This document shows positions 59,964 through 60,653 of a stretch of DNA of 64,000 nucleotides, piece by piece. Source of the DNA: Lama guanicoe. Its lineage: Eukaryota. Made by a program: the position numbers and the translations under genes. Each line of letters opens with the position of its first letter. Position 1 is the stretch's first letter. The notes beneath the pieces were generated by a model, which saw only the letters and a list, made by a program, of their open reading frames with translations, ran no database searches and was not told the origin of the DNA. The stretch is from assembly GCA_013239625.1 (NCBI GenBank), contig MU053083.1, positions 62,001-126,000 of the forward strand, written 5' to 3'.

Positions 59964-60023
59964 GGTCACGTAGAAGAGCTGTTTTAACAACTGTAGGATG
60001 ATCTCAGGATCCAGGCCCAGGTC
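59964..60023 (-). repeat. Inverted intronic copy of 60 nt of MYO5B exon 37 (60523-60582)
   Basis: Reverse complement reads GACCTGGGCCTGGATCCTGAGATCATCCTACAGTTGTTAAAACAGCTCTTCTACGTGACC vs exon GACCAGGGCCTGGACCCCGAGATCATCCTGCAGGTGTTCAAGCAGCTCTTCTACATGATC: 51/60 identical, no gaps. Confidence 0.96.
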
Positions 60024-60367
60024 AGTGGCTGGGCCAAAACCACACCCAAGTTGCTCAATTCTCAGATTTTGGACTCTCAGCACTGAAGCCAATACAGAAT
60101 TGAATTGCTACATGCCTTTCCCTATGGCCCATCACCAACAAATTTAAGTGAACAGATTTGGTCCAAGTCTTCTATATGGAAATCTTATTCCATGTAGAGG
60201 TCAACACATTAGGAACTTAGGGAATTTGGCATAGAATTTCTAAACATGTTGACTTTGTGCAATTCCACGGGGGATCAAAGGCAAAACCCCAAGTACTATG
60301 TGATCTGAGTGACCCAAGTCGTCGTCTTTGGGAACATGCAGCTTCTCTAATCATGCTTTTCTTGCAG

Positions 60368-60653
60368 TTTCTGCCATGTTGGAGAACGAGAGCATTCAGG
60401 GCCTGTCTGGTGTGAAGCCGACGGGCTACCGGAAGCGCTCCTCCAGCATGGTGGATGGAGAGAACTCGTACTCCCTGGATGCCGTCATCCGCCAGATGAA
60501 TTCCTTTCACACAGTCATGTGCGACCAGGGCCTGGACCCCGAGATCATCCTGCAGGTGTTCAAGCAGCTCTTCTACATGATCAACGCGATGACTCTCAAC
60601 AACCTGCTCCTGCGGAAGGACGTCTGCTCTTGGAGCACAGGCATGCAGCTCAG
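60368..60653 (+). CDS. MYO5B: MYO5B exon ~37 (dilute domain), 286 nt
   Basis: cttttcttgcag|TT TCT ... CTC AG|gtagga; [27 protein letters not shown]...[43 protein letters not shown]. Confidence 0.97.

Follow-up and report, generated by a model that had tools for sequence, protein, structure and literature searches.

An inverted copy of a MYO5B exon fragment in the upstream intron of Lama guanicoe: a probable decaying insertion that still forms a strong predicted stem

The MYO5B gene of Lama guanicoe contains, in the intron immediately upstream of one of its coding exons, a 60-nt stretch that is the reverse complement of an internal piece of that exon. The question raised by this locus is whether the intron copy is a functional RNA element or a leftover of mutation. 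An earlier note on the 64,000-nt stretch of contig MU053083.1 that was analysed here (hereafter, the window) proposed that the copy and the exon form an RNA duplex that either directs site-selective editing by ADAR, in the manner of an editing-complementary sequence (ECS), or switches splicing, with a neutral relic as the fallback reading. The evidence described below suggests that a fragment of the exon was probably inserted here long ago as a templated inverted copy, which would have evolved neutrally since then and is still predicted to form a strong stem with its source.

The host exon and its inverted copy

The splice sites were read from the sequence and, in view of the position of the donor GT, the exon end is corrected here relative to the earlier note (Table 1). 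The translation of the exon aligns with myosin-Vb chains in PDB over all 95 residues (E = 1.5e-55; 88 of the 95 residues are identical by hand count) and matches the myosin-Va and myosin-Vc chains less well. In addition, a Pfam DIL domain begins in the last third of the translation (E = 2.9e-11). Given this end-to-end alignment with myosin-Vb chains and the DIL match, the gene is identified as MYO5B and the exon is assigned to the globular tail. The 20 residues encoded by the exon arm of the repeat are identical between the window animal and the human myosin-Vb chain. All 13 adenosines of the exon arm (60524-60580) occupy the first or the second position of a codon, so that every edit would alter a residue; the intron arm contains 16 adenosines (59968-60019).

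Table 1. Features of the MYO5B locus, in coordinates of the window
Feature	Coordinates	Strand	Evidence or remark
Antisense frame of 79 codons without a stop, spanning the intron arm; not a gene	59868..60107	-	Broken in relatives
Intron arm, 60 nt, copied in reverse complement from the interior of the exon that follows	59964..60023	+	Repeat scan, blastn, pairing; relatives
Spacer of 499 nt (loop of the predicted stem): intron end, pyrimidine tract, acceptor, first 155 nt of the exon	60024..60522	+	
MYO5B exon, 286 nt, belonging to the globular tail; the DIL domain starts here	60368..60653	+	PDB and Pfam matches; donor GT at 60654-60655
Exon arm, source of the copy; 20 residues of the myosin-Vb globular tail	60523..60582	+	Identical to the human myosin-Vb chain

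An ungapped comparison of the two arms reproduced the reverse-complement match at 51 of 60 positions that had been claimed in the earlier note, along with both 20-residue translations quoted there, and the similarity ends abruptly at both borders. The inverted-repeat scan delineates nearly the same arms, 59966-60023 and 60523-60580, which are 58 nt long, 86% complementary and 499 nt apart. As also claimed previously, the acceptor (AG at 60366-60367) and a pyrimidine run are located inside the spacer. Both ends of the source piece are internal to the exon, one being 155 nt past the acceptor and the other 71 nt short of the donor. A retrocopy of the mRNA is ruled out: the copied piece is internal to a single exon, and there is no adjacent A-run.

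The resemblance between the arms is highly significant. When the region 59500-60366 was compared with the whole window using blastn, the arm pair was detected with an E-value of 5.2e-14 whereas the next best match had an E-value of 0.013. Moreover, the scan of the entire 64-kb window identified this pair as the only inverted repeat of at least 45 nt with arms within 3 kb of each other. Together, these two results rule out chance. Of the words sampled from 59900-60700, 95-100% were found in 14 DNA runs that carry six organism labels, some of these runs possibly originating from the source sample. This word content, taken from unaligned reads, shows that the arrangement does not belong to a single assembly alone, and the intron arm is present in relatives as well (see below). 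An explanation of the locus by chance similarity or by an assembly artefact therefore retains practically no probability.

Several sequence features were noticed around the intron arm. A perfect 7-nt inverted repeat (60014-60020 and 60029-60035) with an 8-nt loop straddles the inner border of the arm; this could be a trace of a fold-back copying step or a chance occurrence in GC-rich sequence. Just upstream of the arm, the plus-strand stretch 59730-59930 resembles an old SINE of the MIR type; the core of this stretch has weak blastn matches at two other places in the window, 9795-9823 and 41395-41411. The search of Rfam yielded no match above the threshold. The sole match, to ST7-OT4_2 at 59499-59675 on the minus strand, is outside the arms and below the threshold (22.3 bits compared with the gathering threshold of 55; E = 0.27), and probably reflects a shared old repeat or chance.

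Predicted pairing in the pre-mRNA

In the sense RNA, 54 of the 60 positions of the arms are paired (51 Watson-Crick and three G:U pairs, with six mismatches), and two uninterrupted 15-bp helices are present, both in agreement with the earlier note. The predicted energy of the arm-arm duplex alone is -92.2 kcal/mol. When 721 nt are folded, both the MFE and the centroid structures contain the arm-arm stem, with a z-score of -8.28, and none of the 20 shuffled sequences folds as well; in a 1601-nt context fold, all 54 pairs are found in the MFE structure, with probabilities of 0.73-1.00. Thus, RNA folding, which had been suggested in that note as a check, indicates that the arm-arm pairing dominates the predicted structures at both lengths. 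By prediction, the intron contains a sequence that pairs with the exon in the pre-mRNA, as is expected of an ECS. In the lineage of the window, the pre-mRNA can, on this modelling, form a strong imperfect duplex before removal of the intron, and this stem is, physically, a possible ADAR substrate.

An adenosine opposite a cytosine is a context that is favoured by ADARs, and the neighbour preferences of these enzymes include a 5' U and a 5' A. On this basis, the exonic adenosines most likely to be targeted would be A60577, which is located opposite a C as reported in the earlier note, A60575, with a 5' U, and A60563, with a 5' A. In RNA runs, the fraction of the words of 59900-60700 that is contained in the unaligned reads is 0.11-0.38, which is about the share of the exon in this region.

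In the supplementary workbook with the 1,517-site human recoding table (PMC8897444), MYO5 has no occurrences, compared with 52 for the control, GRIA2, and the paper that lists 59 sites conserved in mammals (PMC4053846; Pinto 2014) likewise does not mention it in its main text or in Table 1. These two sources cover human and mouse only, not the species of the window, and it is in these human and mouse lists that the gene is absent from the known mammalian recoding sites. A literature search at the level of titles and the starts of abstracts found no paper on A-to-I editing of MYO5B.

Decay of the intron arm in relatives

The antisense frame that spans the intron arm (Table 1) was used as a query and retrieved 18 translated orthologues of the intron, which come from other organisms and fall into seven groups. 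These relatives come from a word-indexed search, an exhaustive HMMER search of cluster representatives and a profile search, complemented with the members of the respective clusters. The HMMER search yielded five matches, of which P0008, an unrelated leucine-rich-repeat protein, was removed before the counts. No shorter relatives of the antisense frame were found. The 18 translations align to the minus strand of the window from approximately 60116 down to 59730, that is, across the arm and both flanks, and hence represent the intron locus rather than the exon. These sequences (P0002-P0020; 45-170 residues, no Pfam domains, Logan source) are translated intron that has been called as proteins in many public assemblies, and such spurious antisense intron 'proteins' can give access to orthologous DNA that is non-coding. 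An antisense coding exon is ruled out, the frame being broken in the relatives. The long frame of the P0009 group extends through the counterpart of the MIR-like stretch 59730-59930.

Among the retrieved orthologous introns, which represent seven groups, no lineage without the copy was found. A metagenome scan gave 162 pattern matches and two confirmed loci, neither of which is a useful orthologous intron. The first of these, L001, contains a distant, fish-like MYO5B exon, with no copy of the exon in 2.8 kb and with an intron that is not alignable to the window; its inverted repeats are CA/TG microsatellites only. In this locus, a (CA)n tract precedes the exon and a (TG)n tract follows it (926-971 and 1628-1695), and the two tracts are mutually complementary across the exon. 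The second locus, L002, is an 18-residue match and was left out. Pattern scans of genome contigs and of viral contigs gave zero matches each.

All 18 sequences were examined, and the sums given here include one representative from each of the seven groups, with the window as the reference. The comparison is made at the level of residues, with silent changes and the relatives' own exon arms outside it, and the seven groups do not sample a tree independently; there is also an ascertainment bias such that only lineages in which the antisense frame stayed open enough for gene calling can appear. The 28-residue flank adjoining the arm is identical to the window at 146 of 191 residues (76%). For the 20-residue arm, the corresponding count is 81 of 123 (66%), or 81 of 109 (74%) when out-of-frame residues are set aside (hand count). 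By residue identity, 66-74% versus 76%, the arm is no better conserved than the flank. The frame of the arm is broken or shortened in four of the seven groups, namely, the P0003 group, P0010, P0011/P0020 and the P0009 group; an indel in the flank is found in one of the seven. The damage to the arm frame takes several forms. In one group, there is a stop four residues past arm residue 11, and in one sequence, the frame changes after residue 11; another group has four residues missing, and in yet another, residues 12-20 are unreadable and the frame is restored in the far flank.

With each residue difference taken as the minimal base change against the exon, 20 changes can be deduced for the relatives: 10 transversion mismatches, six A:C, three G:U and one ambiguous case. 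Only three of the 19 classifiable changes keep the pair, so that no bias towards keeping pairs is apparent. The nine differences of the window from the exon consist of three transversions, three A:C and three G:U; half of the window's transitions keep the pair, which matches the neutral expectation. The residue-level evidence thus reveals neither the conservation above the intron background nor the pair-keeping changes by which an ECS would be recognized.

The changes in the arm also bear on the age of the copy. The Q>L change at residue 2 and the M>V change at residue 19 are common to every group where these positions are readable and accordingly predate the split of the groups. At arm residue 13, the window has a change from F to L, and its closest relative, P0002, keeps the exon residue, which implies that decay is continuing in the lineage of the window. 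The first seven residues of the arm are unchanged in five of the seven groups, and there could be mild local constraint on part of the arm. A rough estimate from the flank residues, which assumes that some three in four random base changes lead to a different residue, puts the base divergence at about 4% for the nearest group and at 20-25% for the farthest one. The copy is present in orthologous introns of other organisms and is thus old; the divergence of the flank suggests an age that is probably in the tens of millions of years.

Origin of the copy and its possible roles

Altogether, the fallback reading of the earlier note, a neutral relic, is the better one: the arm is kept no better than the flank beside it, indels interrupt it in four of the seven groups, and its changes are mostly pair-breaking. 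As far as the residue-level comparative data reach, the arm diverges neutrally and without covariation, the pattern which that note had named as contradicting a functional element. Under this reading, 60 nt from the interior of the tail-domain exon would have been copied, in one step, as a reverse complement to a position in the intron some 0.5 kb upstream, probably through template switching during replication or through templated repair of a break. Afterwards, the intron copy would have evolved like the surrounding intron, with different lineages losing different parts of the arm through substitutions and small deletions. Any A-to-I editing at the stem would most likely be of low level and without selection behind it, a by-product rather than a recoding or splicing device that is maintained; such unselected editing is quite possible and would be compatible with a relic.

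This scenario resembles known mutations. In the four-point model, single template-switch events copy a nearby fragment in reverse complement (PMC5453318), and such events are described as creating RNA hairpins and new miRNA stems (PMC8794818; de novo miRNA preprint). As in the mutations described under this model, the MYO5B arm derives from a nearby fragment of its own locus, copied in reverse complement, with sharp ends and without flanking homology. Unlike the four-point cases, the pre-event state is absent for MYO5B, so that the four switch points are not placeable. The age of the copy, taken together with the 85% identity that the arm of the window still shows to the exon, could alternatively suggest that the arms have been kept alike by occasional gene conversion from the exon, and not by recent origin or RNA-level selection. 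However, the 15% difference is, by a rough estimate, in keeping with neutral decay over the time that the sampled groups span, the lineage-specific changes and deletions stay unrepaired, and 60 nt would be short for a mammalian gene conversion tract. Gene conversion is accordingly very improbable as the explanation.

The principal functional alternative is a working ECS, that is, an intron arm that guides ADAR1 p110 or ADAR2 to recode one or a few residues in the cargo-binding tail of myosin-Vb and is under selection for this role in the lineage of the window. The strong duplex that dominates the predicted folds and the favourable contexts of A60577, A60575 and A60563 are in line with such a role; besides, transcription reaches the arm ahead of the exon, and pairing would thus be possible once the exon arm emerges. 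The geometry is not unprecedented either because, for BLCAP, an ECS located within the upstream intron has been described (PMC10404624). As in that description, an upstream intron stretch of MYO5B is complementary to a coding exon and could pair with it in the pre-mRNA before intron removal; the difference is that the MYO5B arm is not conserved above its flank and that neither the human list nor the conserved-mammalian one includes the gene. Together with the indels in four of the seven groups and the predominance of pair-breaking substitutions, this makes a working ECS unlikely. Furthermore, all 13 exonic adenosines are recoding and belong to a segment that is identical to the human one, such that widespread editing would probably do more harm than good. 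Of the editing element put forward in the earlier note, then, the very stable predicted exon-intron pairing stands, whereas a kept function does not, given that the arm decays and its pairs are broken. A young recoding site restricted to this lineage, at which the mostly intact duplex would recruit nuclear ADAR and one or more tail residues would be recoded, e.g., M>V at A60577, with a guide that would have been born in one step as an inverted exon copy, is similarly unlikely.

The ECS of GRIA2 is located in the downstream intron, is deeply conserved and supports near-complete, site-specific editing, whereas the MYO5B arm is upstream, decaying and without reported editing. The GRIA2 Q/R duplex and the MYO5B stem share imperfect exon-intron pairing between arms separated by a few hundred bases, with mismatches and an available A opposite C; the maximal editing level given for GRIA2 in the human recoding table is 0.997 (PMC8897444). 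The editing site of SLC9A6 was born from inserted inverted repeats and is fixed across mammals and edited (PMC4053846). By that account, the SLC9A6 and MYO5B cases are alike in that the double-stranded RNA results from a structural mutation and not from point changes, but the MYO5B arm, unlike its SLC9A6 counterpart, shows lineage-specific loss.

The other proposal of the earlier note, a splicing switch, is not supported, for the same lack of arm conservation above the flank. Here the stem would loop out the 3' splice site and tie up the 3' part of the exon, thereby tuning exon recognition. The 499-nt loop does contain the pyrimidine tract and the acceptor, and the arm takes up 60 of the 286 nt of the exon. 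However, skipping an exon of 286 nt would shift the frame of the essential tail domain, which argues against a regulated switch. In known loop-out arrangements, the arms of the inverted repeat flank the regulated exon, being located in the introns on both sides, whereas in MYO5B one of the arms is inside the exon. A role of the stem in splicing thus appears quite improbable.

The reading of the locus as a neutrally decaying inverted insertion implies that the 60-bp exon-intron stem in this trafficking motor gene is probably debris and, for the most part, a clean negative; the stem would be of interest only if RNA from this lineage showed real recoding. The locus indicates that exon-intron structure that is not under selection erodes at the pace of the surrounding intron. 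It also indicates that an exon can acquire a ready-made complementary partner in one mutational step, which would provide raw material for ADAR editing sites.
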